DNA of 64,000 bases from Antedon mediterranea (GCF_964355755.1 NC_092673.1:36081648-36145647); one strand, 5' to 3'. Positions 16,401 through 51,000 are shown, counted from the first letter of the stretch. The notes: generated by a model from the letters alone, not told the origin. Made by a program: numbers and translations.

Positions 16401-19400
16401 ATAAAGCAATGTTAAAATTTGTTTGTATGTGTGTGATGATATTTTTAATATGTTATTGAAGTTTTTTTTAGAATTTAATGTAGCTAAGTTTCTACCGCTG
16501 CCTTGAAAGTGATGATGATAAAATTTGCTTGATTTTAAATATACAATGCTCAGATTCTAAAATTCTGAACTGTTTTTTTCTACAGGAACAGATTATAAGA
16601 CTATGGTAATTAGAGTTGGAAAAGAAATTGATGAAATGACAAATAAAATTGAATTTCTAGAATCTGCAAAACGTCATCTAGAGATGCTTTATTCCGAGCA
16701 GTGGGGTCTAGACCATTCCTTACTATACACATTTGCAACAAGGTAATATTTTAACAACATGTATATTTAATATGGCTTATTTTGATCATGTTTGTATATG
16801 TCACTCGCAAACTGAATTTTTGTTATTTCAGTATGGGACAGGAACCAATGTATCTTCACCATAGTCAGGAAGAATGTCCTTTGCTGTTGTTTCATTATAT
16901 AAAATCAGGTTCAACTTTGCAGGCAGGAGAGCCACTTGGACTATTCTCATACCTTTATGCCAGGTAAAGTTTGTCTACTTTATATACAATAATAGCACAA
17001 TCAAATTTGTGAGCTTGCATGTTGCTCTGTATGTGGAAGGTGTAATATTTATATAAAGTGTAGTAAGAGCCAACTAATGCTACTCATAATTCAAGTCATA
17101 GTATGTATTGATACTGTATAATAATGGTTCTTTAAATTGCTTTTTTGTTTTCAGACAAGCGCTTCTGGATGGTTACATTCATTATTTTTTCTCTACCTAC
17201 CACTACTATGCAACAACAGATGAAATATTTAAGTTCATTGTCGATAAATTCTGTGCTGCCAGAAGGTAACCATTTTTAAACAATATATCTGCTGTATACC
17301 TATTAAGGGTAATCAAACACAAATTTCCAAATTAATATGATAAAATAAAATATTTCTTTTGATATTTCAGTATGAGCTCAGCTCAGGCAGAAAGCAGAAC
17401 TAAAATCTTGTGCCGGACAATTGATATTCTACAAGTATGGATTGAGAATTACTATGCTGTTGATTTTCGACCAAACTTAAATCTTGTTAATCAGTTGACA
17501 GATTTTATTACAGAAAAGGTTAGACATAAACTTCTCTATAATACATACATACAAAATAAAAAGCTAATGATTTAAAGTTACTCTGTATTCAATAATGCTA
17601 TTTGCTATGCTATTTTATATAAATCAATTGAAGAATTTTATAGTTTTATCTCAATTTTATAGGAATTCATGTTGTTTTTGTGTGTTATTCATTTTATGTA
17701 AGTATGTCTATGTGAAGAGCCTCTTGACGGTTATTTTTATTTATAACTTTTAGGTGATCCGGCCTCATTTATTTACTTTTATGTTTTTTTATGTCTTACT
17801 TTGTACTGACTGTATATTGGCGAAATAAATGATATGATATGATATTTATTTATTGGAGTGCGTTTGTAATCAAATCAGGAAAACCATTACATTAGTTTGG
17901 ATGTGGTTATAATAAAAAGGGTGAGAATTATTTAAAATGCGTAGAAATTTTATTTATAATTAGATCTATGTTTGAATAATGCATTATGATATTGTTTGTT
18001 TTTACAGATAATATCTGTTGATGCACAGGGTGAATGTTTGCTGAAACTGTTAAAGAAATGTCAACAAGAAAAAGAAAAGGATATGTTGTTGGAAACATTA
18101 AGAAGACATCAGGAATGTGGAAATCATGCTAAACCAAAGAAAGTAAGTTTAGAATTAACCAAGTCATGATAAACCAAAGAAAGTAAGTTTAGAATTAACC
18201 AAGTCATGCTAAACCAAAGAAAGTAAGTTTAGAATTAACCAAGTCATGCTAAACCAAAGAAAGTAAGTTTAGAATTAACCAAGTCATGCTAAACCAAAGA
18301 AAGTAAGTTTAGAATTAACCAAGTCATGCTAAAGCAAAGAAAGTAAGTTTAGAATTAACCAAGTCATGCTAAACCAAAGAAAGTAAGTTTAGAATTAACC
18401 AAGTCATGCTAAAGCAAAGAAAGTAAGTTTAGAATTAACCAAGTCATGCTAAACCAAAGAAAGTAAGTTTAGAATTAACCAAGTCATGCTAAACCAAAGA
18501 AAGTAAGTTTAGAATTAACCAAGTCATGCTAAACCAAAGAAAGTAAGTTTAGAATTAACCAAGTCATGCTAAACCAAAGAAAGTAAGTTTAGAATTAACC
18601 AAGTCATGCTAAACCAAAGAAAGTAAGTTTAGAATTAACCAAGTCATGCTAAACCAAAGAAAGTAAGTTTAGAATTAACCAAGTCATGCTAAAGCAAAGA
18701 AAGTAAGTTTAGAATTAACCAAGTCATGCTAAACCAAAGAAAGTAAGTTTAGAATTAACCAAGTCATGCTAAACCAAAGAAAGTAAGTTTAGAATTAACC
18801 AAGTCATGCTAAACCAAAGAAAGTAAGTTTAGAATTAACCAAGTCATGCTAAACCAAAGAAAGTAAGTTTAGAATTAACCAAGTCATGCTAAAGCAAAGA
18901 AAGTAAGTTTAGAATTAACCAAGTCATGCTAAACCAAAGAAAGTAAGTTTAGAATTAACCAAGTCATGCTAAACCAAAAAAAGTAAGTTTAGAATTAACC
19001 AAGTCATGCTAAACCAAAGAAAGTAAGTTTAGAATTAACCAAGTCATGCTAAACCAAAGAAAGTAAGTTTAGAATTAACCAAGTCATGCTAAACCAAAGA
19101 AAGTAAGTTTAGAATTAACCAAGTCATGCTAAACCAAAGAAAGTAAGTTTAGAATTAACCAAGTCATGCTAAACCAAAGAAAGTAAGTTTAGAATTAACC
19201 AAGTCATGCTAAACCAAAGAAAGTAAGTTTAGAATTAACCAAGTCATGCTAAACCAAAGAAAGTAAGTTTAGAATTAACCAAGTCATGCTAAACCAAAGA
19301 AAGTAAGTTTAGAATTAACCAAGTCATGCTAAAGCAAAGAAAGTAAGTTTAGAATTAACCAAGTCATGATAAACCAAAGAAAGTAAGTTTAGAATTAACC

Positions 19401-22400
19401 AAGTCATGCTAAACCAAAGAAAGTAAGTTTAGAATTAACCAAGTCATGCTAAACCAAAGAAAGTAAGTTTAGAATTAACCAAGTCATGCTAAACCAAAGA
19501 AAGTAAGTTTAGAATTAACCAAGTCATGCTAAAGCAAAGAAAGTAAGTTTAGAATTAACCAAGTCATGCTAAACCAAAGAAAGTAAGTTTAGAATTAACC
19601 AAGTCATGCTAAAGCAAAGAAAGTAAGTTTAGAATTAACCAAGTCATGCTAAACCAAAGAAAGTAAGTTTAGAATTAACCAAGTCATGCTAAACCAAAGA
19701 AAGTAAGTTTAGAATTAACCAAGTCATGCTAAACCAAAGAAAGTAAGTTTAGAATTAACCAAGTCATGCTAAACCAAAGAAAGTAAGTTTAGAATTAACC
19801 AAGTCATGCTAAACCAAAGAAAGTAAGTTTAGAATTAACCAAGTCATGCTAAACCAAAGAAAGTAAGTTTAGAATTAACCAAGTCATGCTAAAGCAAAGA
19901 AAGTAAGTTTAGAATTAACCAAGTCATGCTAAACCAAAGAAAGTAAGTTTAGAATTAACCAAGTCATGCTAAACCAAAGAAAGTAAGTTTAGAATTAACC
20001 AAGTCATGCTAAACCAAAGAAAGTAAGTTTAGAATTAACCAAGTCATGCTAAACCAAAGAAAGTAAGTTTAGAATTAACCAAGTCATGCTAAAGCAAAGA
20101 AAGTAAGTTTAGAATTAACCAAGTCATGCTAAACCAAAGAAAGTAAGTTTAGAATTAACCAAGTCATGCTAAACCAAAAAAAGTAAGTTTAGAATTAACC
20201 AAGTAATGCTAAACCAAAGAAAGTAAGTTTAGAATTAACCAAGTCATGCTAAACCAAAGAAAGTAAGTTTAGAATTAACCAAGTCATGCTAAACCAAAGA
20301 AAGTAAGTTTAGAATTAACCAAGTCATGCTAAACCAAAGAAAGTAAGTTTAGAATTAACCAAGTCATGCTAAACCAAAGAAAGTAAGTTTAGAATTAACC
20401 AAGTCATGCTAAACCAAAGAAAGTAAGTTTAGAATTAACCAAGTCATGCTAAACCAAAGAAAGTAAGTTTAGAATTAACCAAGTCATGCTAAACCAAAGA
20501 AAGTAAGTTTAGAATTAACCAAGTCATGCTAAAGCAAAGAAAGTAAGTTTAGAATTAAACAAGTCATGCTAAAGCAAAGAAAGTAAGTTTAGAATTAACC
20601 AAGTCATGCTAAAGCAAAGAAAGTAAGTTTAGAATTAACCAAGTCATGCTAAAGCAAAGAAAGTAAGTTTAGAATTAACCAAGTCATGCTAAAGCAAAGA
20701 AAGTAAGTTTAGAATTAACCAAGTCATGATAAACCAAAAAGTAAGTTTAGAATTAACCAAGTCATGCTAAAGCAAAGAAAGTAAGTTTAGAATTAACCAA
20801 GTCATGCTAAAGCAAAGAAAGTAAGTTTAGAATTAACCAAGTCACGATAAACCAAAAAGTAAGTTTAGAATTAACCAAGTCACGATAAACCAAAAAGTAA
20901 GTTTAGAATTAACCAAGTCATGATAAACCAAAAAGCAAGTTTAAAATTAAACAAGTCATGATAAACCAAAAAGTAAGTTTAGAATTAACCAAGTCACAAT
21001 AAACCAAAAAGTAAGTTTAGAATTAACCAAGTCATGATAAACCAAAAAGTAAGTTTAGAATTAACCAAGTCACGATAAACCAAAAAGTAAGTTTAGAATT
21101 AACCAAGTCACGATAAACCAAAAAGTAGGTTTAGAATTAACCAAGTCACGATAAACCAAAAAGTAAGTTTAGAATTAACCAAGTCACGATAAACCAAAAA
21201 GTAAGTTTAGAATTAACCAAGTCATGATAAACCAAAAAGTAAGTTTAGAATTAACCAAGTCACGATAAACCAAAAAGTAAGTTTAGAATTAACCAAGTCA
21301 TGATAAACCAAAGAAAGTAAGTTTAATGTAATGTAATGTTGTTCGATTTATAAAGCACTTATACAATCAAAAGATTGTCCCAAAGCACTAAGAGAAAAAA
21401 CAGAAAGAAATTACAAAGAAAAAAGATTGGTTTTTAAGAGTGTTTTTAAAACTATGATAAAGGATGCATTTTTGATAGTTTAGGAGTATAGCTTATCCAT
21501 TTCCCCAGATGTGCTTGTTCTGCATCATGTATGATTAATTGGATGTATTGGAAGCATGGAGTAAATAATTACTCCAGGCTTAGAAGTGAAGTAATGAAGG
21601 TTCATCGTTTTCTTATTGTCTCTTTATAGAGGTACTCTATTCGAGAAGTATTGAGTGTTCCATCACGTGCACTGCGAGCTGAAAAGATGCCCAGTGGCGT
21701 TGCATCATGCTTTTCAGCAGCACATAAGAAAGAGTCTATGGAGACACAGTCTATTTACATACCTGTACAATCTGGTGATAAAGAATTTACAATGAGTGAA
21801 CACACAGCACAGAGACTGGCATACCAGCTTACACTTATGCAACAGGTAATTTATATTTACATACTTCATCTCTATTCCAAAATTTCACGTCATGTATTTC
21901 TACCTCGATATTTAGATCTTGTCAATGCAGTTTAAGTTTAAAAAACAATGAATCATTGGAATAGTGTAGCTTGGGCTAGGCATGGGTTAGGTTAGAGTAA
22001 TATTACACTGATATGAGCATATAAGTGCACAAACTCATTATTCTACAGGAATTGTTCCGTAAGGTCCATCCAGTACACTACCTAAACTCTCGCTACAATG
22101 GTATTGGTGTCGGCATGGAAGTGGATGTATCTTTGTCATCTCCTTCCATATCTCGTGCTGAGGTAGAACAAGACTATCCTAACTTGTTTGTTAATACACT
22201 CGGTGATGAGGGACTTGTTCATATACAGTTGGAGCATGCTCGTGAAGTGTCACACTGGGTTGCGGCTGAGGTTGTTACATCAGTTAGTCAAAAGGTAAGC
22301 AAGTGTCACACTGGGTTGCAGCTGAGGTTGTTACATCAGTTAGTCAAAAGGTAAGCAAGTGTCACACTGGGTTGCGGCTGAGGTTGTTACATCAGTTAGT

Positions 22401-25400
22401 CAAAAGGTAAGCAAGTGTCACACTGGGTTGCGGCTGAGGTTGTTACATCAGTTAGTCAAAAGGTAAGCAAGTGTCACACTGGGTTGCGGCTGAGGTTGTT
22501 ACATCAGTTAGTCAAAAGGTAAGCAAGTGTCACACTGGGTTGTGGCTGAGGTTGTTACATCAGTTAGTCAAAAGGTAAGCAAGTGTCACACTGGGTTGCG
22601 GCTGAGGTTGTTACATCAGTTAGTCAAAAGGTAAGCAAGTGTCACACTGGGTTGCGGCTGAGGTTGTTACATCAGTTAGTCAAAAGGTAAGCAAGTGTCA
22701 CACTGGGTTGCGGCTGAGGTTGTTACATCAGTTAGTCAAAAGGTAAGCAAGTGTCACACTGGGTTGCGGCTGAGGTTGTTACATCAGTTAGTCAAAAGGT
22801 AAGCAAGTGTCACACTGGGTTGCGGCTGAGGTTGTTACATCAGTTAGTCAAAAGGTAAGCAAGTGTCACACTGGGTTGCAGCTGAGGTTTTTACATCAGT
22901 TAGTCAAAAGGTAAGCAAGTGTCACACTGGGTTGCGGCTGAGGTTGTTACATCAGTTAGTCAAAAGGTAAGCAAGTGTCACACTGGGTTGCGGCTGAGGT
23001 TGTTACATCAGTTAGTCAAAAGGTAAGCAAGTGTCACACTGGGTTGCAGCTGAGGTTGTTACATCAGTTAGTCAAAAGGTAAGCAAGTGTCACACTGGGT
23101 TGCAGCTGAGGTTGTTACATCAGTTAGTCAAAAGGTAAGCAAGTGTCACACTGGGTTGCGGCTGAGGTTGTTACATCAGTTAGTCAAAAGGTAAGCAAGT
23201 GTCACACTGGGTTGCGGCTGAGGTTGTTACATCAGTTAGTCAAAAGGTAAGCAAGTGTCACACTGGGTTGCAGCTGAGGTTGTTACATCAGTTAGTCAAA
23301 AGGTAAGCAAGTGTCACACTGGGTTGCGGCTGAGGTTGTTACATCAGTTAGTCAAAAGGTAAGCAAGTGTCACACTGGGTTGCGGCTGAGGTTGTTACAT
23401 CAGTTAGTCAAAAGGTAAGCAAGTGTCACACTGGGTTGCAGCTGAGGTTGTTACATCAGTTAGTCAAAAGGTAAGCAAGTGTCACACTGGGTTGCTGCTG
23501 AGGTTGTTACATCAGTTAGTCAAAAGGTAAGCATCACGCTACAAATTTAGTTGTTATGTTTCTATTTGAATACAATCATATTTCAAATGTACATAAAAAC
23601 AGAGGTTTTTTTTGTTTTGAAAGATACCATGTTCAACTGGTGTAAATTAAAATCTTGTTCATTGTGAGATAAAAATATTACATTTTTCGTTATTTTTTCA
23701 AGTACCAAACAGCAATCCTGTGTAAGTTCATAATGATAGCTAGAGAGTGCTATGATATGAGGAATTTAGCCACCTGTATGCAGATTATTGATGCTCTAGA
23801 AAGCCTGATTGTAAGACAAGTACCGGTAGGTTTACATACTTGTGTTGCTTTTTTTTTTTATCAAATAAATTAAACTCATGGAGTCGCTATGTAAACTGCA
23901 CTACTACAAAGTTCTCTCTTCTTAAAGGCCTGGCGGAATCTTCCAAGTAAGATTGGAAGTAGTTTTGAAAAGTTAAAGGCGGCCAAAATCATTTTGAAAG
24001 GTGATGGAGAAAGCCTAATAAAGAATAACATTCATCATGACAAACCTACATTACCATGTTCATTGTTCCTACTGATGCATCTACAAAGTGCTGAGATCGG
24101 TGGATTCACACTTGCTAATGGCATGTATAAGTGGACAAAAATGAAGTAAGAATAATTTATATCTTTTTATCTCATTAAACATATTATTTATCGATTGACT
24201 AAAAACACTAAACTAATAAAAATCATTTTGTAAAAATTGATTGAAAAATTTACTGCATATAAAATGTTGCTCAAGTAGTGCAAAAATTCATTCTACTGTA
24301 TATTGCACAATTGTACACAGTTTGTAAACATATTTTGTTCAGGCTGACTGTCAAATAGGCTACTACTAATTGTACACAATTGTACACAGTTTGTAAACAT
24401 ATTTTGTTCAGGCTGACTGTCAAATAGGCTACTACTAATTGTGCACAATTGTACACAGTTTGTAAACATATTTTGTTCAGGCTGACTGTCAAATAGGCTA
24501 CTACTAATTGTACACAATTGTACACAGTTTGTAAACATATTTTGTTCAGGCTGACTGTCAAATAGGCTACTACTAATTGTGCACAATTGTACACAGTTTG
24601 TAAATATATTTTGTTGAGGCTGACTGTCAAATAGGCTACTACTAATTGTGCACAATTGTACACAGTTTGTAAACATATTTTGTTGAGGCTGACTGTCAAA
24701 TAGGCTACTACTAATTGTGCACAATTGTACACTGTTTGTAAACATATTTTGTTCAGGCTGACTGTCAAATAGGCTACTACTAAGTGTGCACAATTGTACA
24801 CAGTTTGTAAACATATTTTGTTGAGGCTGACTGTCAAATAGGCTACTACTAATTGTGCACAATTGTACACAGTTTGTAAACATATTTTGTTCAGGCTGAC
24901 TGTCAAATAGGCTACTACTAATTGTACACAATTGTACACAGTTTGTAAACATATTTTGTTGAGGCTGACTGTCAAATAGGCTACTACTAATTGTGCACAA
25001 TTGTACACAGTTTGTAAACATATTTTGTTCAGGCTGACTGTCAAATAGGCTACTACTAATTGTACACAATTGTACACAGTTTGTAAACATATTTTGTTCA
25101 GGCTGACTGTCAAATAGGCTACTACTAATTAACTATTTTAACTTTTATTATGCAAATTTTCACATTTTCAAGTAAATATTTCAGATACACTTAGTGTAGT
25201 TTATGCAACATTTTCTTACTTTTTCAGATCTATTGCAAAACTTGTCGACCAGATTAGAGTGTTCCAGAATCATACTTTTACCTTTGAATCTGACGCTGAA
25301 CTTCAGGAGTTGCTACAGAAACGCATCCTTCAAATGAATGACCATGACATACACTCATTGGCTGCCCAGCATTCGGCTAATTTTCACCAGCTTGCTTCAG

Positions 25401-25465
25401 AAAAGAGCTCAAATCGTTTTAAAGTAGCGTTTAAAAAAGTTAAACATTACACTGAAACTTTTTAA
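4410..25465 (+). CDS. KNDC1: KIND-domain RasGEF (very-KIND / KNDC1), 17 coding exons
   Basis: Phase-consistent GT-AG exons: 4410-4668, 6268-6326, 8098-8350, 8482-11250, 11343-11490, 11682-12714, 15721-15811, 16586-16742, 16832-16963, 17155-17265, 17371-17518, 18008-18142, 21630-21845, 22049-22294, 23703-23825, 23928-24145, 25228-25465. N-terminal KIND motifs (LSDIL...LLEDELWAVCKE, YLPPE, GHLYSLA), the KNDC1-like block FAFDGYLENGVEDLQMGEYIVSL...ITEKFCDLYWEEDLL, REM (ILQVWIENYYAVDF) and RasGEF (LAYQLTLMQQELF, VSHWVAAEVV, RNLATCMQII) segments. Confidence 0.9.
5242..5320. repeat. 25-bp tandem repeat x3 in a KNDC1 intron
   Basis: aagttagtagcataacattttgtgg repeated three times. Confidence 0.85.
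6400..6744. mobile_element. Non-autonomous TIR element with TTAA flanks (Kolobok-like MITE)
   Basis: Left ttaa-gatgtattgtcctcc and right gggggacaatatatct-ttaa are imperfect inverted repeats. Homologous copies in this window at about 26646-26900, 34560-34787 and 37254-37576 (inverted) share ttttggtcaaagtgaataact...gacattaaaatggcatattaaacaaaaa. Superfamily call is inferred from the TTAA target and purine-start termini. Confidence 0.7.
12764..15635. mobile_element. Foldback-like element with long, internally repetitive inverted arms
   Basis: Left arm (about 12764-13510) is made of ggacaactacccc(c)-type 15-17-mers; right arm (about 14688-15635) is made of the reverse complement gggggtagttgtcc-type units. 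It fills most of KNDC1 intron 12715-15720. No clear target-site duplication and no transposase ORF. Confidence 0.75.
14148..14617. mobile_element. MITE with 9-bp target-site duplication (Mutator-like), nested inside the foldback element
   Basis: TIRs gggtgtttcgaaactagagacccgagaccagagacc / ggtctctggtctcgggtctctagtttcgaaacaccc. Perfect direct repeat gttaaaaac at 14139-14147 and 14618-14626. Interior is a 22-23-bp tandem repeat (tatacgaaaagggagacccca). Confidence 0.85.
18124..21325 (+). repeat. 40-bp (38-bp distally) tandem array, about 80 copies, spanning a KNDC1 exon end and 5' splice site
   Basis: Unit tcatgctaaaccaaagaaa|gtaagtttagaattaaccaag; the first copy is the real end of exon 18008-18142. 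Confidence 0.95.
22245..23532 (+). repeat. 56-bp tandem array, 23 copies, spanning a KNDC1 exon end and 5' splice site
   Basis: Unit aagtgtcacactgggttgcggctgaggttgttacatcagttagtcaaaag|gtaagc; donor GT at 22295 + 56n up to 23527. Confidence 0.95.
24305..25130. repeat. 69-bp tandem array, about 12 copies, in the last KNDC1 intron
   Basis: Unit cacaattgtacacagtttgtaaacatattttgttcaggctgactgtcaaataggctactactaattgt(g/a); the period is divisible by 3, which explains the repetitive minus-strand ORFs. Confidence 0.92.
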
Positions 25466-25960
25466 ACTATAATAATTATAGTAATATCTTATTGTTTGCC
25501 TCTCTGCCAATGACATTTAGTCAGGTTAACATTTTATGCTGTCCTGTTCGTTTTAATGACAATATGAATTAAAAAAATAGTATACATAATAATATAATAA
25601 TAATATATATAGTGTATATATATGCAGTATTAAACAAGTTTTAAATATGACAATCTAAAAAAACATTTTTAATTTTAATGTGTGTGAAAATATCAATGTG
25701 TGTCATATATTATATATTCAATCTATTTTATGTACAGTACTACAATAAATGTTTTAAATATCTAAGATGTAAAATTTAACTGAAAGAAGAAGTTGCGATA
25801 AATCATTGAGGTGTTGAAATCAATAAAGGAAACTTAAATACGTTAAATTACAAATTATTGGTTGGGAAGTTTATGAAAATTTGTCAATTTTAAATGAATG
25901 TGAAATAAGGTTATAAAATACATCACAGTGACTTGGTTTGCCACAAACTGACGCATCCAG

Positions 25961-27055: not shown

Positions 27056-28603
27056 ATGGCGGACTCGGTAATAAAAACGATCATTTTAATGCTACTGATA
27101 ACTTTACTCAGTGTTGGAAATGGCCGACATACACATAGACGGAATAAAACTAGAGGCGACCCCAAGAAGAAGAACGTATTAATAATGTTTGTTGACGATG
27201 GTGGATTTGAAAGCCCAGTGTACAATAATACAGTCTGCAAAACTCCAAACTTGTCCGCATTTGCTAAGCGTAGCGTTGTATTACGTAGAGCCTATACATC
27301 TGTGAGCAGTTGTTCACCAAGTCGCTCTGCTTTACTCACTGGACTACCACAGCATCAGAACGGTATGTACGGATTACATCACTCATTCCATCATTTTGAA
27401 TCATTTGAAGGAGTCAAAAGTATCCCACTGATTCTAAAGGACCATGGTGTTCGGACGGGCATAATTGGTAAGAAGCATATAGGGCCTGATGACGTTTATA
27501 AATTCGATTACGAAAGAACAGACGAACATTACAGTATGTTACAAGTTGCTAGGAACATCACTAACATGAAAATTCTTGTGAATGAATTTCTATCCATGGA
27601 TGATCGTCCGTTTTTCCTTTATATTGCTTTCAAAGATGTTCACAGATGCGATGCAGGTATTGAAAAATATGGACAATTTTGTGAACGATTTGGAAATGGT
27701 AGCCAAGAGACGGGAACTATTCCAGATTGGAAACCAGCATATTACGACCCATTTGACGTCATTGTGCCATACTTTCTACCCGACACATTGGCAACCAGAC
27801 AAGAAATTTCAGCACAGTATACGTCGGTCAGTAGAATGGACCAAGGGGTCGGACTTTTCCTAAACGAACTAAAATCGTTGGGGTTCCTTGATAACACGTT
27901 GGTTATCTACACTGCAGACAATGGTATACCTTTCCCTAACGCAAAAACAAATCTGTACGAAAGCGGCATGGGTGAACCAATGATTATATCATCTCCTATG
28001 CACACCGAACGTTGGGGTGAGATTAGTGATGCTATGGCCAGTACTATTGATATTGTACCGACAATACTAGATTGGTTTGGAGTTGACTACCCATCATACC
28101 TCCTTAATGGTGTCACTGTGAATCTGAGTGGCAAATCTTTACTTCCAATATTGACTTCTGAACCAACAACGGGAGAGAAGTTTGATGAAGTGTTTTCCAG
28201 TCATGATCTACACGAAATAACAATGTACTACCCAATGAGAGTTGTACGCAATCGTCAGTACAGACTAATACATAACCTGAACCACGCCACGTCATATCCG
28301 ATCGCACTCGACATTTTCATGTCCCCAACATTCCAAGACACGTTAAACCGATCCCATGAAGGAAAGCCAACCAACTGGTTCAAGTCTTTACACCAGTATT
28401 ACTATCGACCAGAGTGGGAACTGTACGATGTCAACAATGATCCACAAGAATTGACCAACTTGATAGATAACTCGACACTGGCTGACATGGTGAAGAACCT
28501 GAAGACCAGCTTACAGGCATGGCTAAAAGAAACCAATGATCCGTGGCAATGCCTACCTAATGGCGTGTTAGTTGGGTCTGAATGTTGGCCTCTTTATAAC
28601 TGA
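27056..28603 (+). CDS. SGSH: N-sulphoglucosamine sulphohydrolase (sulfamidase)-like, single coding exon
   Basis: 515-aa ORF with hydrophobic signal peptide, NVLIMFVDDGGFES, formylglycine motif SSCSPSRSALLTGLPQHQNGMYGLH, RTGIIGKKH, YTADNGIPFP, HEITMYYPMR, YYYRPEWELYD and TNDPW. Probable 5'-UTR exon ending at 26441 (AAG|gtatgt). Confidence 0.95.
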   Translation: MADSVIKTIILMLLITLLSVGNGRHTHRRNKTRGDPKKKNVLIMFVDDGGFESPVYNNTVCKTPNLSAFAKRSVVLRRAYTSVSSCSPSRSALLTGLPQHQNGMYGLHHSFHHFESFEGVKSIPLILKDHGVRTGIIGKKHIGPDDVYKFDYERTDEHYSMLQVARNITNMKILVNEFLSMDDRPFFLYIAFKDVHRCDAGIEKYGQFCERFGNGSQETGTIPDWKPAYYDPFDVIVPYFLPDTLATRQEISAQYTSVSRMDQGVGLFLNELKSLGFLDNTLVIYTADNGIPFPNAKTNLYESGMGEPMIISSPMHTERWGEISDAMASTIDIVPTILDWFGVDYPSYLLNGVTVNLSGKSLLPILTSEPTTGEKFDEVFSSHDLHEITMYYPMRVVRNRQYRLIHNLNHATSYPIALDIFMSPTFQDTLNRSHEGKPTNWFKSLHQYYYRPEWELYDVNNDPQELTNLIDNSTLADMVKNLKTSLQAWLKETNDPWQCLPNGVLVGSECWPLYN

Positions 28604-29384
28604 TGGAGCAGCCATGTATCGCACAATAGCACAATTATTACATTCATTGATATTCTAAAATACTACCTCATTTTTTTCTTAACGGCTAAAACAATCCATG
28701 ACATGTTATGGATACTGGCCTTATTATTATTATTATTGTTATTATTAATGTGAACTTGCAATGGTATATTGGCATGCTTCGTATATTTAGGGCTTACGCC
28801 TATTATGTATTATGGTATATTATGTATTTTCATACATTTTCATAATATTATTATAAAGAAACTTTATTTGTATTGTAATAAACACAGTAGCCATGATTTT
28901 CTTTTAAGTCATTTAATATTAATAAGCATCAGGGTTGTATAACAGTACGGTAAATGGTTTAAAATTAAAAACAATGTAAATACTACCGTTTTACCATAAT
29001 GCACGGATGCATGCATGAATGTTGTACCGGTTTACCATAATGCACGGATGCATGAATGTTGTATATAGAAGTACTGTAGTTTGTTGAATGATGTTACTGA
29101 ACCAATTTCACAAACATATCAGTTACATCGAATATAGTAGACTATTACTCCTTGGTACATTATCTGACCCATTTAAATCGTGAAATTATCGTAAATTATT
29201 ATTCACGATCGATATCGTGAAACACAGTTACACTAAATGTTAATAATGAGCCACCTGCTATAGTGACTGTCTAATTCACCCCATCATTCTCTTTTTTTTT
29301 AACGTCTCTCGATGCCACTGTGCTTGCCAGGTCATTGATCCATCGAGAGCGACATCATTTTTCAGAATGATAACATTCATGTGC

Positions 29385-35700: not shown

Positions 35701-38700
35701 ATGGACAATGGAGACGATTATGAAGCGCTGCCTACCTCCAAGTTTACTACACACTTGCTCGCTGGTGCAATGGCGGGCATGGGAGAACATTGCATAATGT
35801 ATCCGATTGATTGTGTGAAAGTGAGTTTATAAAACTACTTGTCTTCAATCATGTCTATTTCTGACTATCACAAGGATTGTAAAATTTGTTTGCGCGCACT
35901 AAAATAACAATAAAATGTTCCAGTGCAGTTCCTGAGTGATTTTACTTGTGTATTACAATCAGAGCAATGTCGAACTCACGTGGCACACCCGAGCAGGAGC
36001 TAGAAGGCTAGAATAGATATATAGATAAGCCTAGGCGAGTCCTAAACATCACACAGCTCAGGCCCATTCCCTACGGCACACCTCTAGGCCTAGTCGTCTC
36101 TCACACAGATTGGTGAGGAGTGTCATCGATGGAGTAGCCAATTAGCCTTACTTAGTTATAAATTTAAACTGCTTTATCACTCTGCTTCCTGTAGTGTTAT
36201 GAGATATAGTTTTATACTGTGATAAAAATTAACTTGCTAGCCCACCTCATCCTAACTAGTTAGAAGAGAAGGCAGTTGTGTGAGGCCTAAGGCTGTAATG
36301 TATAATAGTAGAGTAGGGTGGTATTGCTATTTAGAATCCTACTACTAGGCCTAGCTAGTGGCGGTACTATTATATTAATTTTCAGAAATTTTAGAACAAT
36401 TAAAATAAATAATTTTACTAAAAGACATTTTAATGTAGAATATTATGGAAAATTTGGTTTCCTTATATTTTTTGAATTTTTCAGACTCGGATGCAGAGTG
36501 TTCGTACATCACAACAAATGTACCGTAGTGTTTTTGGAACACTAAGAACTATAATACACAATGAAGGGTTCCTGAAGGTTGTACGAGGTCTAAATGTTGT
36601 GGCTGTAGGAGCAGGACCTTCGCATGCTCTCTATTTTGCTTGTTACGAACATTTAAAAAAGAAATTAAGTTCAGGAAGACCTGGCCAAAGTCCATTGGTA
36701 AATGGTATGTATGCTGTGAATATTTTGGGTTTTTTTATTGAAGAAACAACATTTTTATTTTTTCATTTCTAAAATCATTGTCAGTTAAACTTTAAAACAT
36801 TTCACTACCTATTAAGTAATAACCAATTAATCAGTGCTGAATTAATTCTTAATACCCTTCTGTCCTTTGTGGGAAAAATGCTTTGTCATTTTAATACACA
36901 AGATGGTGTATTTAAACAAGTACTCCAAACTTCATTATTGAATGAGTTTGCATTTTGTATAGAAACATGCTGCAGTTAAGGTTTACCAATTTGTGATTAG
37001 CTGAAATATATTCCTTTTAAGTTTTAATATTAATTAACTTGCCCATAGGTCCTTGAGTATAATCCCACCCCTGTACATGAAATTTGTTGGAATATATCCG
37101 GGAATCCTCTGTACATAAACCAAGGCTTAATACTGTCCAAATGTAAATATTGTGTTATGTAAAGGTGCTCTGGTAAGGTCAGGGGTCGAATTATACATGA
37201 AGATCTACGGTAATTATAAAGGATTTACCAGGCTAGTACTTTAATTAGTTACAAATATATTGTCCCCCTAAACATTTTTGTTTTCAATAAATATTCCATT
37301 TTAATGTAACATAATAGTTATTCACTTTGACCAAAAACTGAATATAAAAATTATTATTATTTACCTGAAAAAATGTAATTTAAAGCAAAAAAAATACTTA
37401 AATTATCTGTTTAGACAATGGTTTTTGGTTAAAATTAAATGTTTCCTTTGTCTTTTTCCAAGTGAAATAATTTTTTTTTTTACAGAAGTGAATACATTAT
37501 AACAGCCAAATAGCCTATTTAAAGTCTGATTTAATTAATCTTCATTTTTCATGTTTTTGGGAGAAGTTGCATCTTGATAACAATAATGTCACATGTTTTT
37601 ATTCAAATGTCGTTTTTTTTTTACATTTCTTAAGTATAGGGTCTGTAATTTCATGTTGTAAGTATACAATAAAAGCAAACTAATTACTGTTACATTTATT
37701 AATAAGTGTAAAACCATGATTACAAATTTATACTGTTGTAATTAATAATAAAAATCCTAATATAATAAGTTTATAATTTAATAACTGAAATTATTTACTA
37801 AACTAATTATTGAACTTTTTTGTAAAGTACCATTATATTTTAAAGCAAAAAGTAGAGTGCATGTTCTTATCTTCACAGCTGTCATAAGATTTTTTTCCAA
37901 ATGCGAGAACATTTTTTTTATATACATACACAAAAGCCGAACATGCAATTTGAACTAATAATTTCCACCATACATTAAATATCAGTGTTATTGATGGCAC
38001 ATGATGCATAATTAACCAGTCAAAATACTACAATACACTGTTATAATAAAGAATATTTATTGACCATTTTCTACTAGTTAATTATCAGTAGTTATTTATT
38101 TACTGTTGAATGAATTAACAAACAAATTCTGCTGTTTTTTTTTCCGTTTGTTTCAGCTATTGCTGGGAGTATTGCAACTTTGGTGCATGATGCAGCGATG
38201 AATCCAGTCGATGGTAAAAAGTTTTAGTTTTTGGCAGTAAAAGCAGACATTTTTATAACCGGTGGTCATCATCTCAAATGATCTGGGCGTTGCTTAAATA
38301 ATCTGGGCACTGCTTAAATGATCTGGGTTTTGCTCAAATGATCTGGATGTTGCTCAAATGATCTGGGCACAGCTCAAATGATCTGGGCACTGCTTAAATG
38401 ATCTGGGCACTGCTCAAATGATCTGGGCGCTGCTCAAATGATCTGGGCGCCGCTCAAATGATCTGGACGCTGCTCAAATGATCTGGGCGCTGCTCAAACA
38501 ATCTGGGCACCGCTCAAACGATCTGGCCACCGCTCAAATGATCTGGGAACCGCTCAAATGATCTGGGAACTGCTCAAATGATCTGGGAACCGCTCAAATG
38601 ATCTGGGCGCTGCTCAAATGATCTGGGCGCTGCTCAAATGATCTGGGCGCTGCTCAAATGATCTGGGCGCTGCTCAAATGATCTTGGCGCTGCGAAAGCG

Positions 38701-39427
38701 ATCTGGGCGCCGCTCAAACGATCTGGGTGCTGCTCAAATGATTGAGGATATCTTTGGATATCCACAACCTTTATAAAAGAAAATGTGTTTATTTTGGTTT
38801 ACAGTACAGAATGTAATTAAAAGTTAATAACCTCATTCTTTGTTTTCAGTTATAAAGCAAAGATTACAGATGTACCAGAGTCCATACAAGAGTGGAATTG
38901 ACTGTATGAGGACTGTTTGGCATAGTGAAGGCAGTCTAGCTTTCTATCGTAGTTACACTACACAATTGACAATGAACATCCCATTTCAAGTCATACATTT
39001 TGTGACGTACGAAATAGGACAAGAAATGCTGAATCCCACACGGAAGTACAATCCCAAAACACATGTTATTTCTGGCGGGTGTGCTGGTGCAATAGCTGCT
39101 GCGGCAACTACACCACTTGATGTGTGTAAGACTATGCTTAACACACAAGAGAGTTTAATTTTAAATAATAAAAACGGCACAAGTGTCGCAATTACTGGTA
39201 TGATTAATGGGATGAGGACACTTTATATGAAAGAAGGTCTTTCAGGATTTTTCAAAGGCTTGCGAGCTAGAGTAATCTTCCAAATACCAGCGACGGCAAT
39301 TTCCTGGTCAGTTTATGAATTCTTTAAATTTATGCTAACAAACCAAGTGAATACGACGGACAGTAATAATGGAAACGGGTTAGCAATGGCTAGTAGTAAA
39401 TTATCATTAAAAGGAGACCAGCAGTGA
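35701..39427 (+). CDS. SLC25A37: Mitoferrin (mitochondrial iron carrier; co-ortholog of SLC25A37/SLC25A28), 4 coding exons
   Basis: Exons 35701-35820, 36485-36704, 38157-38213, 38850-39427. [11 protein letters not shown]...[23 protein letters not shown]|[82 protein letters not shown]. Confidence 0.95.
38251..38778. repeat. 20-bp tandem array (about 23 copies), possibly the interior of a small TIR element, in mitoferrin intron 3
   Basis: Unit atctgggcgctgctcaaatg at about 38273-38745; the flanks ttttataaccggtgg and ccacaacctttataaaa are weakly inverted. Confidence 0.85.
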
Positions 39428-40726: not shown

Positions 40727-41414
40727 CGTAAAGTTACATTTAATGTGTACATACTGTACAAGAAAAAAAGCATAGGCCTGTAGTTTAACTTTCATCGCAC
40801 AAATGTATGTTTACCAACAATAGTACAAATTATAAGAAATATATATATATTGTTGGTGGTGGTATATAATGGAATTTTTAAATAATTATAATAGTAGTCA
40901 TTGATTTAGAATGTAGAAAATATTTTATTAAGATTGCAAATTGTATAACATTGATATTAAGAGTACTATTTAGTATACAGTCCCTACTAAACAATATCCT
41001 ATTTTGTGACAAGCATGTAATATTCTTTTCTTTTAGGATCCTTTTTATAAAAAAAGACTGAAGTGACCAGTGTATTGTGTGATTACTATCTAACATGTGC
41101 AGATTAGTTTATCATTTTAACATTTACTTTCAAAAATGGTTTTTTTCTCACTATAATATAATGATATGCGATTTAAATATAATCTAGTATCATTGATGAT
41201 TGGAAACATTGATAAAATGTTGATTAAAAAAGAGTTGATTACAAAAATAATAATTTTAAATTGTCATGATTACACTGTACATTTGCAATAAAATATTGAT
41301 GTTACTAAACTTTACACATATTGTTTACATATAACATGAGTTATGACTTTTATCTTGGTAGCAGTTTATAATAATTCTTCTTGTCTTTATAAGGATTTTG
41401 GCATTGCTGCTAGT

Positions 41415-43440
41415 CTATGCTTTACTCAAGTCCTTATTTAGTGTAAATAGTTCTTCTCCTTGCTTTATAGCGTAATCAATGCCTTCACATATTTCCTGCC
41501 ATTTCTTTGGCACAAACTCCAATCCATAATAAGCTCCACCAATAGCACCGGCCATTGTTGCTATTGTATCTGTATCTCCATCCATTGTAATGGCGTAAAG
41601 TATGGTACGCACAAGGCCATTATCTGTTGGAATACTTTCAATGTGTTTAACTGATCGCAAGAAACAGAAGATTGCTGTAACTACAGATTGATGTGCTGCT
41701 ATGCCATTGCCTGTAAAAATATGAAATTAAACTTTACATATTTCTCATTCTATACACCATCAACAGTGTATGACATCCTTTCCCTTTAGAATATTACATA
41801 CCAAGTTGTTCAACCACTTTTTATTTTAAACTTTACATATTTCTCATTCTATACACCATAAACAGTGTATGACATCCTTTAGAATATTACATACCAAGTT
41901 GTTCAACCACCTCTTTATTTTCTACATTATTCCTTTTCAAAAATTCTTTTACAATTTTCAACTTGTTTGCATATACTGCTTCCTCAGAAACACGCTCATC
42001 AAATCTATTTTAAAAACAATAGAAAATAATGCAATCAGTAATTTTAGACATAAAGATAATATTTTATTTAATAATTTATTTTACTGAAGTAGAACAGAAG
42101 TAATAATTATACCTTGATTTTGTAGCTTCGCTGACTTCTTCTGCTCCTCCTTCAACATGTTTCATTATATCAATTAATCCATCAACAAGTTTATCTGTAT
42201 CGATATCCGTTCCATTGTCAATGTGAAGCACATTGTGGATTGCACAGCATAGTAACAATGCACCATTATATCCTAAGCTGTTAGAATGTGTTAAACGGGC
42301 AGAGTCAACAGCAACCTATGTAGTAGATCATTTGTTAAAATTATTGAACCTTTTTTGCCACTTGACAGTATCGCCATTTTAAATATGAAATGTGGAATCA
42401 TGTTTAGTTTGAATTCTTGTTGATCAAAGCATATTGATCGAAACATCGAGAAACTCAACAGTTATTTTCAGAACTAATACACGTGGTGTACCGCAAACTT
42501 TATATCAACAATTTTGAAAATCCACAAAGTTGGTCATTGAACCTACCTGTTTCATAGTTTCAAAGTTATTGTAGAAAGCAAGAGCAACTGGTGCTACTCT
42601 CATTGCTCCACCATTCCCATAAGATCCACTCCCATTAAATTGTGTTGTTGCTGGATGATAAATATTGGTTAATGCAGGGTCCGCTAATCTTTGAAATATA
42701 TCTGTTACATTTGCTCCATACCCTCTCCAGTTCTCCTTTACGTATTCATCATTGAATCTGCAATTTTGATTAGGAAATTCAAAATGATATATGCAGCACA
42801 GAAATTGAATGGAACAATAAATATGAAACATAATAATTATAATGTTGAATAGATTGTGCTACCTTTTAGCCATATCCCGTGCATTAAACTTGCATGTACT
42901 CTCTATGAGGGACTGAGCAACTGACCTGGCCATAGCTGTATCATCTGTAAACTTTAGTTTCTCTGTAAATGCAGAAAAAACACACTCACAAATGCTGGAC
43001 ACATAGATATATCAGTACCATAATGCAGGAGTGCAAGTATACAATTTATTAGGTTCAATTTAATGGTTTATTATTATAGAAGTGATTGTTGTTGTTCACT
43101 CACAGTATTATTTACTTATTCTATTATGTTCATTTTATATGTATGAACCCTAACCCTAACCCTAACCCACTGAAGTGGATTTTCTATTTTATGTATGAAC
43201 TGCCCACTGAAGTGGATTTTCTATTTTTACAATTCAACTTAAAGATGAGAAGGATGCATGAATCATTTGGAACGTACTAGAATCAAAACTCAACTCCTCT
43301 TCAAACTTGATAACCTTGTTGACACTTTCAACACCACATACTTCAAACGGAGCACCAAGGCAGTCGCCAGCAACTGCAGCTGCCAAACAACCCTGAAAGC
43401 GAGCCTTTAACTTGTGTCCCCATGCTGCAGTTGCAGACAT
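41415..43440 (-). CDS. ADPRS: ADP-ribosylhydrolase ARH3 (ADPRHL2), 6 coding exons
   Basis: Minus-strand exons 43440-43278, 42962-42863, 42757-42547, 42315-42113, 42004-41895, 41710-41415. ARFQGCLAAAVAGDCLGAPFE, FTDDTAMARS, RGYGANV, QFNGSGSYGNGGAMRVAP, SARLTHSNSLGYNGA, LGNGIAAHQSV, DGDTDTIATMAGAIGGAYYG. An acceptor at 43505 implies an upstream exon, so the start could extend. Confidence 0.93.
41728..41910 (-). repeat. Two-copy duplication (about 90 bp) spanning an ADPRS exon end and 5' splice site
   Basis: Sense-strand GTGGTTGAACAACTTG|gtatgtaatattctaaagg occurs at the true donor (41894) and again at 41801 inside the same 184-nt intron. Confidence 0.85.
43146..43168. repeat. Short interstitial telomere-like (TAACCC)n tract
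   Basis: aaccctaaccctaaccctaaccc, about 4 units of the TTAGGG complement, in an ADPRS intron. Confidence 0.7.
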
Positions 43441-43899
43441 CCCAAACCACCTCACCAAATTCAGCTTAAAAAATTTCTTTAAAAAACAAAGAAGATGCAA
43501 CAAACTGTTAATTCAAACAAACAATAGATTTACTACTACACACACTACAGCAAATATACTTATGACATGCAGCCTGAGTTATGATATTATATAATAACAA
43601 AAACTGACAGAATATATCACCAGGCTAGGGCCTATAATTAGGTTAGTACTACACTAGTACTGTCTGTAGTACTACTAGATAATAAGTAGTAGAGTTCAGT
43701 AGGTAGTACTTAGTAGTGGTGGTAGTAGGCCTTACTAGCTAGGCCACCTCTCTAGCTAGGCTAATCCAAATTTTCATTAGAATTCAAATTTTCTAAAATA
43801 TTTTTTAGAATATTCCTCCAATTAAATATTCCTCTCTTGGTTGGTAGAAAAATGATTAGTGTTTAAATATGCCTAGTTGTCCTACTATAAGTGTATTTG

Positions 43900-45031
43900 T
43901 GAAAGATATCAGAATGAGCAATCCGGGGTTTTCCCTTGCAACAGTAATTTTGTTCCGTGCGGTAGGGCGCCGTATACGTCGGGATGATTTGTGACGGTCA
44001 CTAGTTTGATCCCGAGTTTGATAAAAAAGTGCGATATGCCCAAATATGGTCGTGATATGACATCATCATGTCCCTATATGGCACATAACATTTTTTGTCA
44101 CGTAATTGATAGCGTAGACAGAGCTATAGCCTGGTGGGCCACCGGTAGGGTTCTCATGATTATCAAGTACATGCTAACATCATGTTTTAAATGCTATTTG
44201 GATCATGATTTTTTAAATCGTTCAATATGCAATTATTTAGTAAAAAAATGACAAATAGACAGTTCTTCGCATCAACTGCCTGGCGTATTGTTGTTAGGAT
44301 AGTTCATTAATATTGCAATAGTCAACTTTTTTCTAATAGAAAAAATAAATATTACAGGTAGTTGAATTTGACATTGTATAACATGTATTTTATAGTAATT
44401 TATATCATAAATATTACTTGACCGGGCGTAGATTAATATGCGGCAATGGCAAAGAATCTGTACTTTTTATTGTTTTAAACATTGTATTTCAAACTGCACG
44501 TGTATTAACAAAGAATTTCTATTTTTATATAAATTAGACCAATGAAAGATTAATTGAATACTAAGCCATGCTTGGTAACATGGATGATTTTTGCTGTAAA
44601 CATTTCTTTGTGAACTAATTTTATTTTAGTTATTTTATTTTATTCAATCGAAACCAACAGCAATAATTACCGCCGCTAACAGGTTGATACAAACAAAGCC
44701 AGGACTCAGCACCTTGGTTGGTCCTAACATGGTGGTAAAATAATTTTTCTATTTTCAATTTTTTAATGCACACTAGTATGTTATTAGATATTTTTCATGA
44801 GATGTTATATAATTGCAAAATATACTATCATTCTATTTAAATCAATGACTGTTAAGCACCTTGGTTGGTACATCCGCTAGGGCGGGCAGGCACCCATGCT
44901 CTAAAAAGTACACAGAGAGACTTTCCAATGCAAAAATCGCGTGACGTGTGTACAGTGAGTGGTGGCAGCAGATTAGCAGCAGCAGCACCCATGTGTTAAT
45001 ACACGTTGTGTGAACACTTTTTTCCTTCAAA
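43900..45031. promoter_or_regulatory. Probable head-to-head promoter region shared by ADPRS and MAK16
   Basis: Divergent genes with start codons about 1.6 kb apart; local CpG/GC enrichment at about 43920-44000 and 44870-44990, including cgcgtgacgtg at about 44938. Transcription start sites not determined. Confidence 0.5.
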
Positions 45032-48000
45032 ATGCAACATGACGATGTAAGTATTTCTTTATTTGGGATCTTCATTTAAACATTGATTTCAATATTAGTT
45101 TAATTTCTAATTTCTTATAATATCACTATCTAGGCATCTAGAATTTAAATTCTAGGCTAGGCTAGGCCTAGTCCTCGGAGGACTAGAAGTCCGTCCTTCC
45201 TTGTGTAGGATTAGGAACTAGGGAGCCTGACCCTGGGTCGATTCGTCCCAGGAACAATTCAACCCGGCAATATTATTGTATGTTATTAGCCTATAGTAGT
45301 AGGTAAATTAATTTTATACACAACAACTTCAAACACTTTCTCTTGACTTAGATTTATTTGCATTTTAAATCACAAATTGCATTTATGATTTAATTAAAAA
45401 CAAAGAAAAGTGGCTAACCACCGAAATGAGCCAGTTTCATTAAAACTTTACCAAAACTGTATCCAATTTAGTTTTAGATTGTCTTTTTCTGGTTCAGTTA
45501 GCCAGACAATAATTATGTTGTATGAATAAAAATGAAATGAATTCATTATTTTTTTTTAAAATAATTACTGTTGTCTTGTCACAGGTCATATGGAGTATTA
45601 TTAACACCACATTCTGCTCATACAAAGTGAATTCGAAAACAACACAGTTTTGCCGTAATGAGTATAACTTAACAGGTTTATGTAACCGATCAGCCTGCCC
45701 TCTTGCTAACAGTCAATATGCAACAATCCGTGAAGAAAACGGTTAGTTTAGTAGATTATACACTTTCAGTTTTGCCGTAATGAGTATAACTTAACAGGTT
45801 TATGTAACCGATCAGCCTGCCCTCTTGCTAACAGTCAATATGCAACAATCCGTGAAGAAAACGGTTAGTTTAGTAGATTATACACTTTCAGTTTTGCCGT
45901 AATGAGTATAACTTAACAGGTTTATGTAATCGATCAGCCTGCCCTGTTGCTAACAGTCAATATGCAACAATCCGTGAAGAAAACGGTTAGTTTAGTAGAT
46001 TATACACTTTCAGTTTTGCCGTAATGAGTATAACTTAACAGGTTTATGTAACCGATCAGCCTGCCCTCTTGCTAACAGTCAATATGCAACAATCCGTGAA
46101 GAAAACGGTTAGTTTAGTAGATTATACACTTTCAGTTTTGCCGTAATGAGTATAACTTAACAGGTTTATGTAATCGATCAGCCTGCCCTGTTGCTAACAG
46201 TCAATATGCAACAATCCGTGAAGAAAACGGTTAGTTTAGTAGATTATACACTTTCAGTTTTGCCGTAATGAGTATAACTTAACAGGTTTATGTAACCGAT
46301 CAGCCTGCCCTCTTGCTAACAGTCAATATGCAACAATCCGTGAAGAAAACGGTTAGTTTAGTAGATTATACACTTTCAGTTTTGCTGTAATGAGTATAAC
46401 TTAACAGGTTTATGTAATCGATCAGCCTGCCCTGTTGCTAACAGTCAATATGCAACAATCCGTGAAGAAAACGGTTAGTTTAGTAGATTATACACTTTCG
46501 TAGTTACAATGTAAAGAGCAAGAAGTATTTAGGTGCTTTAATAATAATACTGTAATAATGACATTATATGTTTTATGTTGATAGGTGTTTGACATTATAT
46601 GGATTATATGTTTTATGTTGATAGGTGTTTGACATTATATGGATTATATGTTTTATGTTGATAGGTGTTTGACATTATATGGATTATATGTTTTATGTTG
46701 ATAGGTGTTTGACATTATATGCATTATATGTTTTATGTTGATAGGTGTTTGACATTATATGGATTATATGTTTTATGTTGATAGGTGTTTGACATTATAT
46801 GCATTATATGTTTTATGTTGATAGGTGTTTGACATTATATGGATTATATGTTTTATGTTGATAGGTGTTTGACATTATATGGATTATATGTTTTATGTTG
46901 ATAGGTGTTTGACATTATATGGATTATATGTTTTATGTTGATAGGTGTTTGACATTATATGGATTATATGTTTTATGTTGATAGGTGTTTGACATTATAT
47001 GGATTATATGTTTTATGTTGATAGGTGTTTGACATTATATGGATTATATGTTTTATGTTGATAGGTGTTTGACATTATATGCATTATATGTTTTATGTTG
47101 ATAGGTGTTTGACATTATATGGATTATATGTTTTATGTTGATAGGTGTTTGACATTATATGGATTATATGTTTTATGTTGATAGGTGTTTGACATTATAT
47201 GGATTATATGTTTTATGTTGATAGGTGTTTGACATTATATGGATTATATGTTTTATGTTGATAGGTGTTTGACATTATATGGATTATATGTTTTATGTTG
47301 ATAGGTGTTTGACATTATATGGATTATATGTTTTATGTTGATAGGTGTTTGACATTATATGGATTATATGTTTTATGTTGATAGGTGTTTGACATTATAT
47401 GGATTATATGTTTTATGTTGATAGGTGTTTGACATTATATGGATTATATGTTTTATGTTGATATGTGTTTGACATTATATGGATTATATGTTTTATGTTG
47501 ATAGGTGTTTGACATTATATGGATTATATGTTTTATGTTGATAGGTGTTTGACATTATATGGATTATATGTTTTATGTTGATAGGTGTTTGACATTATAT
47601 GGATTATATGTTTTATGTTGATAGGTGTTTGACATTATATGGATTATATGTTTTATGTTGATAGGTGTTTGACATTATATGGATTATATGTTTTATGTTG
47701 ATAGGTGTTTGACATTATATGGATTATATGTTTTATGTTGATATGTGTTTGACATTATATGGATTATATGTTTTATGTTGATAGGTGTTTGACATTATAT
47801 GGATTATATGTTTTATGTTGATAGGTGTTTGACATTATATGGATTATATGTTTTATGTTGATAGGTGTTTGACATTATATGCATTATATGTTTTATGTTG
47901 ATAGGTGTTTGACATTATATGGATTATATGTTTTATGTTGATAGGTGTTTGACATTATATGGATTATATGTTTTATGTTGATAGGTGTTTGACATTATAT

Positions 48001-51000
48001 GCATTATATGTTTTATGTTGATAGGTGTTTGACATTATATGGATTATATGTTTTATGTTGATAGGTGTTTGACATTATATGGATTATATGTTTTATGTTG
48101 ATAGGTGTTTGACATTATATGGATTATATGTTTTATGTTGATAGGTGTTTGACATTATATGGATTATATGTTTTATGTTGATAGGTGTTTGACATTATAT
48201 GGATTATATGTTTTATGTTGATAGGTGTTTGACATTATATGGATTATATGTTTTATGTTGATAGGTGTTTGACATTATATGCATTATATGTTTTATGTTG
48301 ATAGGTGTTTGACATTATATGGATTATATGTTTTATGTTGATAGGTGTTTGACATTATATGGATTATATGTTTTATGTTGATAGGTGTTTGACATTATAT
48401 GGATTATATGTTTTATGTTGATAGGTGTTTGACATTATATGGATTATATGTTTTATGTTGATAGGTGTTTGACATTATATGGATTATATGTTTTATGTTG
48501 ATAGGTGTTTGACATTATATGGATTATATGTTTTATGTTGATAGGTGTTTGACATTATATGGATTATATGTTTTATGTTGATAGGTGTTTGACATTATAT
48601 GGATTATATGTTTTATGTTGATAGGTGTTTGACATTATATGGATTATATGTTTTATGTTGATATGTGTTTGACATTATATGGATTATATGTTTTATGTTG
48701 ATAGGTGTTTGACATTATATGGATTATATGTTTTATGTTGATAGGTGTTTGACATTATATGGATTATATGTTTTATGTTGATAGGTGTTTGACATTATAT
48801 GGATTATATGTTTTATGTTGATAGGTGTTTGACATTATATGGATTATATGTTTTATGTTGATAGGTGTTTGACATTATATGGATTATATGTTTTATGTTG
48901 ATAGGTGTTTGACATTATATGGATTATATGTTTTATGTTGATAGGTGTTTGACATTATATGGATTATATGTTTTATGTTGATAGGTGTTTGACATTATAT
49001 GGATTATATGTTTTATGTTGATAGGTGTTTGACATTATATGGATTATATGTTTTATGTTGATATGTGTTTGACATTATATGGATTATATGTTTTATGTTG
49101 ATAGGTGTTTGACATTATATGGATTATATGTTTTATGTTGATAGGTGTTTGACATTATATGGATTATATGTTTTATGTTGATAGGTGTTTGACATTATAT
49201 GGATTATATGTTTTATGTTGATATGTGTTTGACATTATAATGACATTATATGTTTTATGTTGATAGGTGTTTGACATTATATGGATTATATGTTTTATGT
49301 TGATAGGTGTTTGACATTATATGGATTATATGTTTTATGTTGATAGGTGTTTGACATTATATGGATTATATGTTTTATGTTGATAGGTGTTTGACATTAT
49401 ATGGATTATATGTTTTATGTTGATAGGTGTTTGACATTATATGGATTATATGTTTTATGTTGATAGGTGTTTGACATTATATGGATTATATGTTTTATGT
49501 TGATAGGTGTTTGACATTATATGGATTATATGTTTTATGTTGATAGGTGTTTGACATTATATGGATTATATGTTTTATGTTGATAGGTGTTTGACATATG
49601 GATTATATGTTTTATGTTGATAGGTGTTTGACATTATATGGATTATATGTTTTATGTTGATAGGTGTTTGACATTATATGGATTATATGTTTTATGTTGA
49701 TAGGTGTTTGACATTATATGGATTATATGTTTTATGTTGATAGGTGTTTGACATTATATGGATTATATGTTTTATGTTGATAGGTGTTTGACATTATATG
49801 CATTATATGTTTTATGTTGATAGGTGTTTGACATTATATGGATTATATGTTTTATGTTGATAGGTGTTTGACATTATATGGATTATATGTTTTATGTTGA
49901 TAGGTGTTTGACATTATATGGATTATATGTTTTATGTTGATAGGTGTTTGACATTATATGGATTATATGTTTTATGTTGATAGGTGTTTGACATTATATG
50001 GATTATATGTTTTATGTTGATAGGTGTTTGACATTATATGGATTATATGTTTTATGTTGATAGGTGTTTGACATTATATGCATTATATGTTTTATGTTGA
50101 TAGGTGTTTGACATTATATGGATTATATGTTTTATGTTGATAGGTGTTTGACATTATATGCATTATATGTTTTATGTTGATAGGTGTTTGACATTATATG
50201 GATTATATGTTTTATGTTGATAGGTGTTTGACATTATATGGATTATATGTTTTATGTTGATAGGTGTTTGACATTATATGGATTATATGTTTTATGTTGA
50301 TAGGTGTTTGACATTATATGGATTATATGTTTTATGTTGATAGGTGTTTGACATTATATGGATTATATGTTTTATGTTGATAGGTGTTTGACATTATATG
50401 GATTATATGTTTTATGTTGATAGGTGTTTGACATTATATGGATTATATGTTTTATGTTGATAGGTGTTTGACATTATATGGATTATATGTTTTATGTTGA
50501 TAGGTGTTTGACATTATATGCATTATATGTTTTATGTTGATAGGTGTTTGACATTATATGCATTATATGTTTTATGTTGATAGGTGTTTGACATTATATG
50601 GATTATATGTTTTATGTTGATAGGTGTTTGACATTATATGGATTATATGTTTTATGTTGATAGGTGTTTGACATTATATGGATTATATGTTTTATGTTGA
50701 TAGGTGTTTGACATTATATGGATTATATGTTTTATGTTGATATGTGTTTGACATTATATGGATTATATGTTTTATGTTGATAGGTGTTTGACATTATATG
50801 GATTATATGTTTTATGTTGATAGGTGTTTGACATTATATGGATTATATGTTTTATGTTGATAGGTGTTTGACATTATATGGATTATATGTTTTATGTTGA
50901 TAGGTGTTTGACATTATATGCATTATATGTTTTATGTTGATAGGTGTTTGCTTTTTGTACATGAAAACAATAGAGAGAGCAGCATTTCCATCAAAGTTAT

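Follow-up and report, generated by a model that had tools for sequence, protein, structure and literature searches.

Tandem repeats that lie across exon-intron borders have been described in amphioxus and in human genes. The amphioxus "mirage" minisatellites have tandem units of 10-160 bp over the borders, on both the donor and the acceptor sides (PMC3087553), at the globin loci BflGb6 and BflGb9 (PMC3087553) and at PGBD5 (PMC3902484), and the available parts of both papers report that they do not disturb splicing (PMC3087553, PMC3902484). In human F7, as far as the accessible text goes, the first unit of a 37-bp VNTR in intron 7 is the real donor and is followed by identical pseudo-donors, and the most upstream donor is the one used, as shown by mutation in mammalian cells (PMC1557585). 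The same text names comparable repeats in 6-16, CBS intron 13, lamin B2 and PDGF, with two further sites used as well in CBS and 6-16 (PMC1557585). Human CBS also has 844ins68, a 68-bp intron 7/exon 8 duplication that is spliced out to give normal mRNA (PMC2630376); the sites are termed donors in the available portion of that paper, and the title of the study cited there speaks of 3' splice sites. Tandem duplications that involve splice signals are described, too, as a route to new introns (PMC2812944, accessible part). The class is thus already described; what is new here is the occurrence of unusually large and dense members in an echinoderm, which would extend mirage minisatellites to that group. 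In the literature searched, which covered few subscription papers, we found neither a crinoid report nor a genome-wide study of junction enrichment.

Tandem arrays were called with TRF in the window, that is, the whole 64,000-nt stretch of DNA analyzed, along which all positions are counted. Gene and exon models were built by hand, with a few UTR junctions being approximate. Four sequencing runs were compared with the window over 40760-45790: X5, from another sample; X9, tentatively taken as RNA because of its spliced contig; X10, from a related species (organism B); and X13, which covers 1 of 30 bins. The three host genes and the arrays that they carry are as follows.

4435..25465, plus strand: host gene 1, RasGEF_N plus RasGEF, 17 coding exons modelled, carrying A1 and A2
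41390..43906, minus strand: host gene 2, ADP-ribosylglycohydrolase (ADPRS-like), seven exons from the 2018-nt X9 contig
45032..52202, plus strand: host gene 3, MAK16-like (Pfam L28e family), seven coding exons, 286 aa, carrying A4 and A5
18124..21325, plus strand: A1, TRF 40 bp x 80.7, 81 donor copies
22245..23533, plus strand: A2, TRF 56 bp x 23.0, 23 donor copies
41727..41921, minus strand: A3, TRF period 99 x 2.0, two copies across the ADPRS donor
45645..46499, plus strand: A4, TRF 122 bp x 7.0, 7 donor copies
46563..50950, plus strand: A5, TRF 40 bp x 109.7, 110 acceptor copies
46474..46584, plus strand: inner intron-like segment of 111 nt, from the last A4 donor to the first A5 acceptor

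The initial annotation had placed five arrays across splice junctions and had read them as copies of their hosts' own exon-intron boundaries. Both statements hold for all five arrays, on the evidence of TRF, open gene models and Pfam continuity. The A1 unit consists of 19 nt of exon end, the donor and 21 nt of the intron side, and its first donor, at 18143, keeps the frame; the A2 unit has 50 nt of exon and 6 nt of intron (first donor 22295), and the A4 unit 97 nt of MAK16 exon 2 and 25 nt of intron (first donor 45742). The two A3 donors are 93 nt apart, the exon-adjacent one at 41894 and the decoy at 41801. On the acceptor side, the A5 unit comprises the acceptor and 7 nt of MAK16 exon 3, with AG followed by GT, and the last acceptor keeps the frame (exon start 50944). 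GT is kept in 80/81, 23/23, 2/2 and 7/7 donors of A1, A2, A3 and A4, respectively, AG is intact in 104 of the 110 A5 acceptors, and over the core signal the decoys do not differ from the true sites. Unit identity given by TRF is 98% in the four large arrays (A1, A2, A4 and A5) and 91% in A3. Pfam L28e segments 1-54 and 57-115 continue over the first-donor/last-acceptor joins, and RasGEF segments 12-61 and 67-102 likewise continue over the join, the 12-61 piece being weak (E 0.096). The 3' part of the RasGEF host gene runs for 605 codons with no internal stop; its name, KNDC1, comes from the initial annotation and is putative, as is a KIND domain, and a homolog search with one RasGEF exon gave none among 99 candidates of 145-2000 aa, which is weak evidence. 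The 111-nt segment between A4 and A5 probably differs little from the ancestral MAK16 intron 2. An intron of the RasGEF gene also contains what is presumably a foldback-like element (12779-15630), whose long inverted arms consist of 16-17 bp tandem repeats, and a nested element at 14131-14634, bounded by 56-nt inverted repeats with a 22-bp array inside.

Four of seven mirage features are found here: boundary span, unit size (40, 56, 93-99, 122 and 40 bp, within the mirage range of 10-160 bp), kept signals and a homogenized interior. As in amphioxus, there are several loci per genome with GT/AG intact in many copies, and the interior is homogenized with distinct edges, which is clearest in A1, weaker in A2 and A4, and not evident in A5. 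The Adh3 mirage in amphioxus is reportedly unstable in somatic length. Unlike the amphioxus mirages, the present arrays sit in an echinoderm and amplify both ends of one intron, and copy numbers reach 81 and 110, against 3-6 in the accessible account of BflGb6. The human F7-type repeats, as described in the available text, have 5-25 copies, donors only, one per gene, whereas up to 110 copies and an acceptor array are found here. CBS 844ins68 resembles what is predicted for A5, in that the copy adjoining the intact exon is used, at an exon start, but the accessible description is of two copies rather than the 110 of A5. Tandem duplication of AG|GT sites has reportedly been studied as a source of new introns. 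It likewise involves duplication of splice signals, and A5 units have AG then GT; in contrast to such gain, existing introns have been lengthened here, and no new intron or exon is seen.

We consider that the arrays are probably mirage-type minisatellites, chance duplications over exon-intron borders that have grown and been kept as the exon-adjacent site is still spliced. The genome would often make tandem duplications of 20-120 bp, either by slippage or in the repair of breaks, with ends that overlap little or not at all, and some of them would be enlarged by unequal exchange. Copies wholly within coding exons would be purged, whereas those crossing a junction would be shifted into the intron, leaving the exon intact. 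The first donor may then win by 5'-to-3' scanning or exon definition, by analogy with F7, and the last acceptor by exon definition; splicing between inner decoys would leave the outer sites available for a second splice, and rare decoy products with early stops would be removed by NMD. A2 and A4 each hold an integral number of units and one extra base, the pattern of a simple tandem duplication, and A2 has a 1-nt overlap at its ends. The 11-nt spacer of A5 repeats 10 nt from immediately upstream, a match equalled in 2 of 1000 shuffles, and this suggests a template switch; no local template was found for the 12-nt spacer of A1, for which 902 of 1000 shuffles match as well. In A1, 38-bp variant units are restricted to the last 16 of 80 units, at the 3' end, and these edge units, together with the variant blocks, would fit growth by slippage or unequal exchange.

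The claim that the arrays share a polarity, with the first donor or the last acceptor keeping the frame, stands; that it calls for a special explanation does not. When a duplication crosses a donor, it is the first copy that stays on the intact exon, and when it crosses an acceptor, the last; the polarity thus arises by itself and says nothing about the mechanism. The stops met on decoy use had been attributed to four arrays. Early stops occur in all five, after 8, 19, 2 and 1 codons for the four array donors and two codons in for the A5 decoy acceptors; however, read-through of the 40 modelled donors reaches a stop in 38 (median 9 codons), and early stops are generic for introns here rather than peculiar to arrays. 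Transcripts with premature stops are NMD substrates.

Strict choice of the exon-adjacent site is likely the rule, and at A1, A2, A4 and A5 this reading is based on open frames. The accompanying assumption that identical competing sites are normally used fails for F7, lamin B2 and PDGF. At ADPRS, an X9 contig (2018 nt, depth 96.3) joins the exon-adjacent donor, and neither a join to the decoy donor nor a MAK16 junction is found among the X9 matches listed; the X9 individual need not carry A3, so this contig may not show a choice. The A5 acceptor copies score alike (6.8), so position must decide, and the last acceptor is likely marked out by exon definition together with the next donor, which lies 217 nt from it. 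Removal of the 111-nt inner intron copy would leave both outer sites usable. Re-splicing at A5 is possible but weak, the regenerated donor scoring 4.8, above one of the 40 real donors (4.4-11.3). Separately, A4 was considered as a ready-made new exon and set aside: its junction-made acceptor scores 0.0, above just 3 of 41 real acceptors, and splicing to it would yield either an in-frame form of 265 aa or a stop at 60 aa.

The decoys could alternatively act as regulators, with copy number tuning decoy splicing into NMD or with U1/U2AF being soaked up. The match of decoys to true sites over the core signal, the early stop in every array, and the decoy use in CBS and 6-16 repeats noted in the accessible text of PMC1557585 are in line with such a role. 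However, the stops are generic, arrays away from junctions look alike, the three hosts have in our judgement no obvious common pathway, and A3 and A4 are not conserved, being absent in organism B. A regulatory function is thus highly improbable, and the copy-number-tuned poison splicing or snRNP decoy control put forward at first is left without positive evidence.

The comparison of runs bears on age as well as on assembly. A3 is absent from organism B, in which one X10 contig spans the ADPRS intron and is 99 nt shorter, and so is A4: an X10 contig tracks MAK16 exon 2 to 45768, diverges at unit 2 and continues for 2752 nt past the divergence point. From the length of this contig, organism B would also lack A5. 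The intron positions of A3 and A4 are present in organism B, with no new intron position there, and the absence of both arrays indicates that they are recent. In the X5 sample, a 152-nt contig, made up of one 122-nt unit and 30 nt more, crosses the A4 unit junction with zero differences, and A4 therefore exists outside this assembly. X5 depth at this junction is 800.7 against 250.6 in the flank, that is, 3.2 times the flank depth compared with 7 copies here, although contig depth is not a copy number. That the large arrays A1, A2 and A5 are assembly or library artefacts could be argued from their 98% unit identity and from the fact that the independent match covers A4 rather than these three. 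The A4 junction in X5, the recurrent variants and edge block in A1 and A5 units, which are unlike random read errors, and the frames that restart cleanly on either side of the arrays all speak against it, and we regard such an artefact as very doubtful. Recurrent variants in A1, A2 and A5 argue against random error, without proving copy number.

Other features of the ADPRS region were noted in the same comparison. At 43146-43227, an ADPRS intron has three to four telomere-like hexamers followed directly by a 37-bp duplication, possibly the trace of a break that was repaired; organism B carries 80 nt of different sequence where the window has 163 nt. Short repeats at 42420-42510 and 44015-44081 are of high copy, with X10 bin depths up to ~158,000 and 870,000, and are probably small mobile elements.

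To place the arrays relative to junctions, 19 locally born arrays (unit of at least 20 nt) were each collapsed to one unit and compared with 93 modelled junctions; microsatellites, units below 20 nt, a 79% two-copy repeat at 29870 and the arrays of the foldback-like element at 12780-15630 were excluded before the count. Five of the 19 span a junction (5 of the 93 junctions carry an array), 14 miss all 93, a point absent from the initial annotation, and none is wholly coding; no 14-mer matches of the 19 units occur elsewhere in the window. Across 15 null settings, 1.4-2.3 hits were expected (nominal P = 0.009-0.068): 1.4-1.8 under uniform placement (P = 0.009-0.028 for at least 5), 1.7-2.3 with placements wholly in coding sequence barred (P = 0.022-0.068), and 1.6-1.8 within gene spans, where 5 of 12 were seen (P = 0.012-0.020). 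Non-junction units have a GC content of 0.40 against 0.31 in the non-coding background (P = 0.013), and the excess remains under a GC-weighted null (1.9 expected, P = 0.034). All of the three longest arrays lie across junctions (nominal P = 0.010), as first noted for the window's two largest arrays, and junction arrays rank high in length (P = 0.005) and in copies (P = 0.044). The excess speaks against pure chance but is mild and weakly supported, a lead only, as the P values are nominal and the single window was singled out because of these arrays.

It has been proposed that a mutational process is aimed at junctions, so that duplications are born or grow preferentially there; exon borders could promote this through polymerase pausing or R-loops, or longer arrays could be favoured for distancing a short intron-defined inner decoy pair from the exon. 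The excess of 5/19 over about 2, the three longest arrays, the amplification of one short intron (MAK16 intron 2) at both ends, and the suggestion, in the available part of PMC3087553, that mirages may be general in cephalochordates with an unclear mechanism lend it some weight, and survival alone does not predict junctions at all three longest arrays. On the other hand, the P values are nominal, the exon models were hand-built and the single window was chosen for these arrays; and the 14 arrays off junctions include four with 12-24 copies. What is left of the proposal is a weak excess, and we think a junction bias unlikely. Chance duplication and retention is still the preferred reading. Non-junction arrays such as those at 24304-25130, 31305-31816, 38273-38742, 57583-57876 and 59024-59711 are young local arrays at high density. 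At 58532-58574 a 23-bp duplication begins five bases past a donor, a near miss with the donor excluded.

These arrays provide natural large test cases, with 80 identical decoy donors in A1 and 103 identical decoy acceptors in A5, the latter preceding an exon of MAK16, a conserved single-copy-type gene. A5 is the most useful, as an upstream acceptor would be expected from scanning and the last one from exon definition. A bolder and rather doubtful reading is that in this crinoid lineage splice-site-capturing repeats arise or expand faster than other minisatellites, which would make junctions hotspots of array growth, and that the MAK16 intron 2 acceptor is found past 103 intact decoys, possibly by nested, repeated re-splicing that uses the 111-nt copy of the intron together with the AG-GT sites of the units. 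If a junction excess were true genome-wide, it would tie splicing or transcription to the birth of repeats, for which the accessible part of PMC3087553 calls the mechanism unclear. Junction arrays can also mislead gene annotation.

Three further gene-like features lie in the window. A minus-strand gene of eight exons at 29282-34137 is methyltransferase-like, presumably arsenite-methyltransferase-like, and its intron 2 bears a 29-bp x 17.7 array. An N-sulphoglucosamine sulphohydrolase-like gene at 27056-28603 has an uninterrupted frame of 515 codons and what looks like an intron in its 5' UTR, and it is possibly a retrocopy. Its closest protein is from the feather star Anneissia japonica (81% identity), followed by one from Antedon mediterranea (65%), and a comatulid crinoid is therefore the most likely source of the window. 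Two neighbouring short frames on the minus strand, at 61834-62020 and 63542-63828, resemble what we take to be G-protein gamma subunits.
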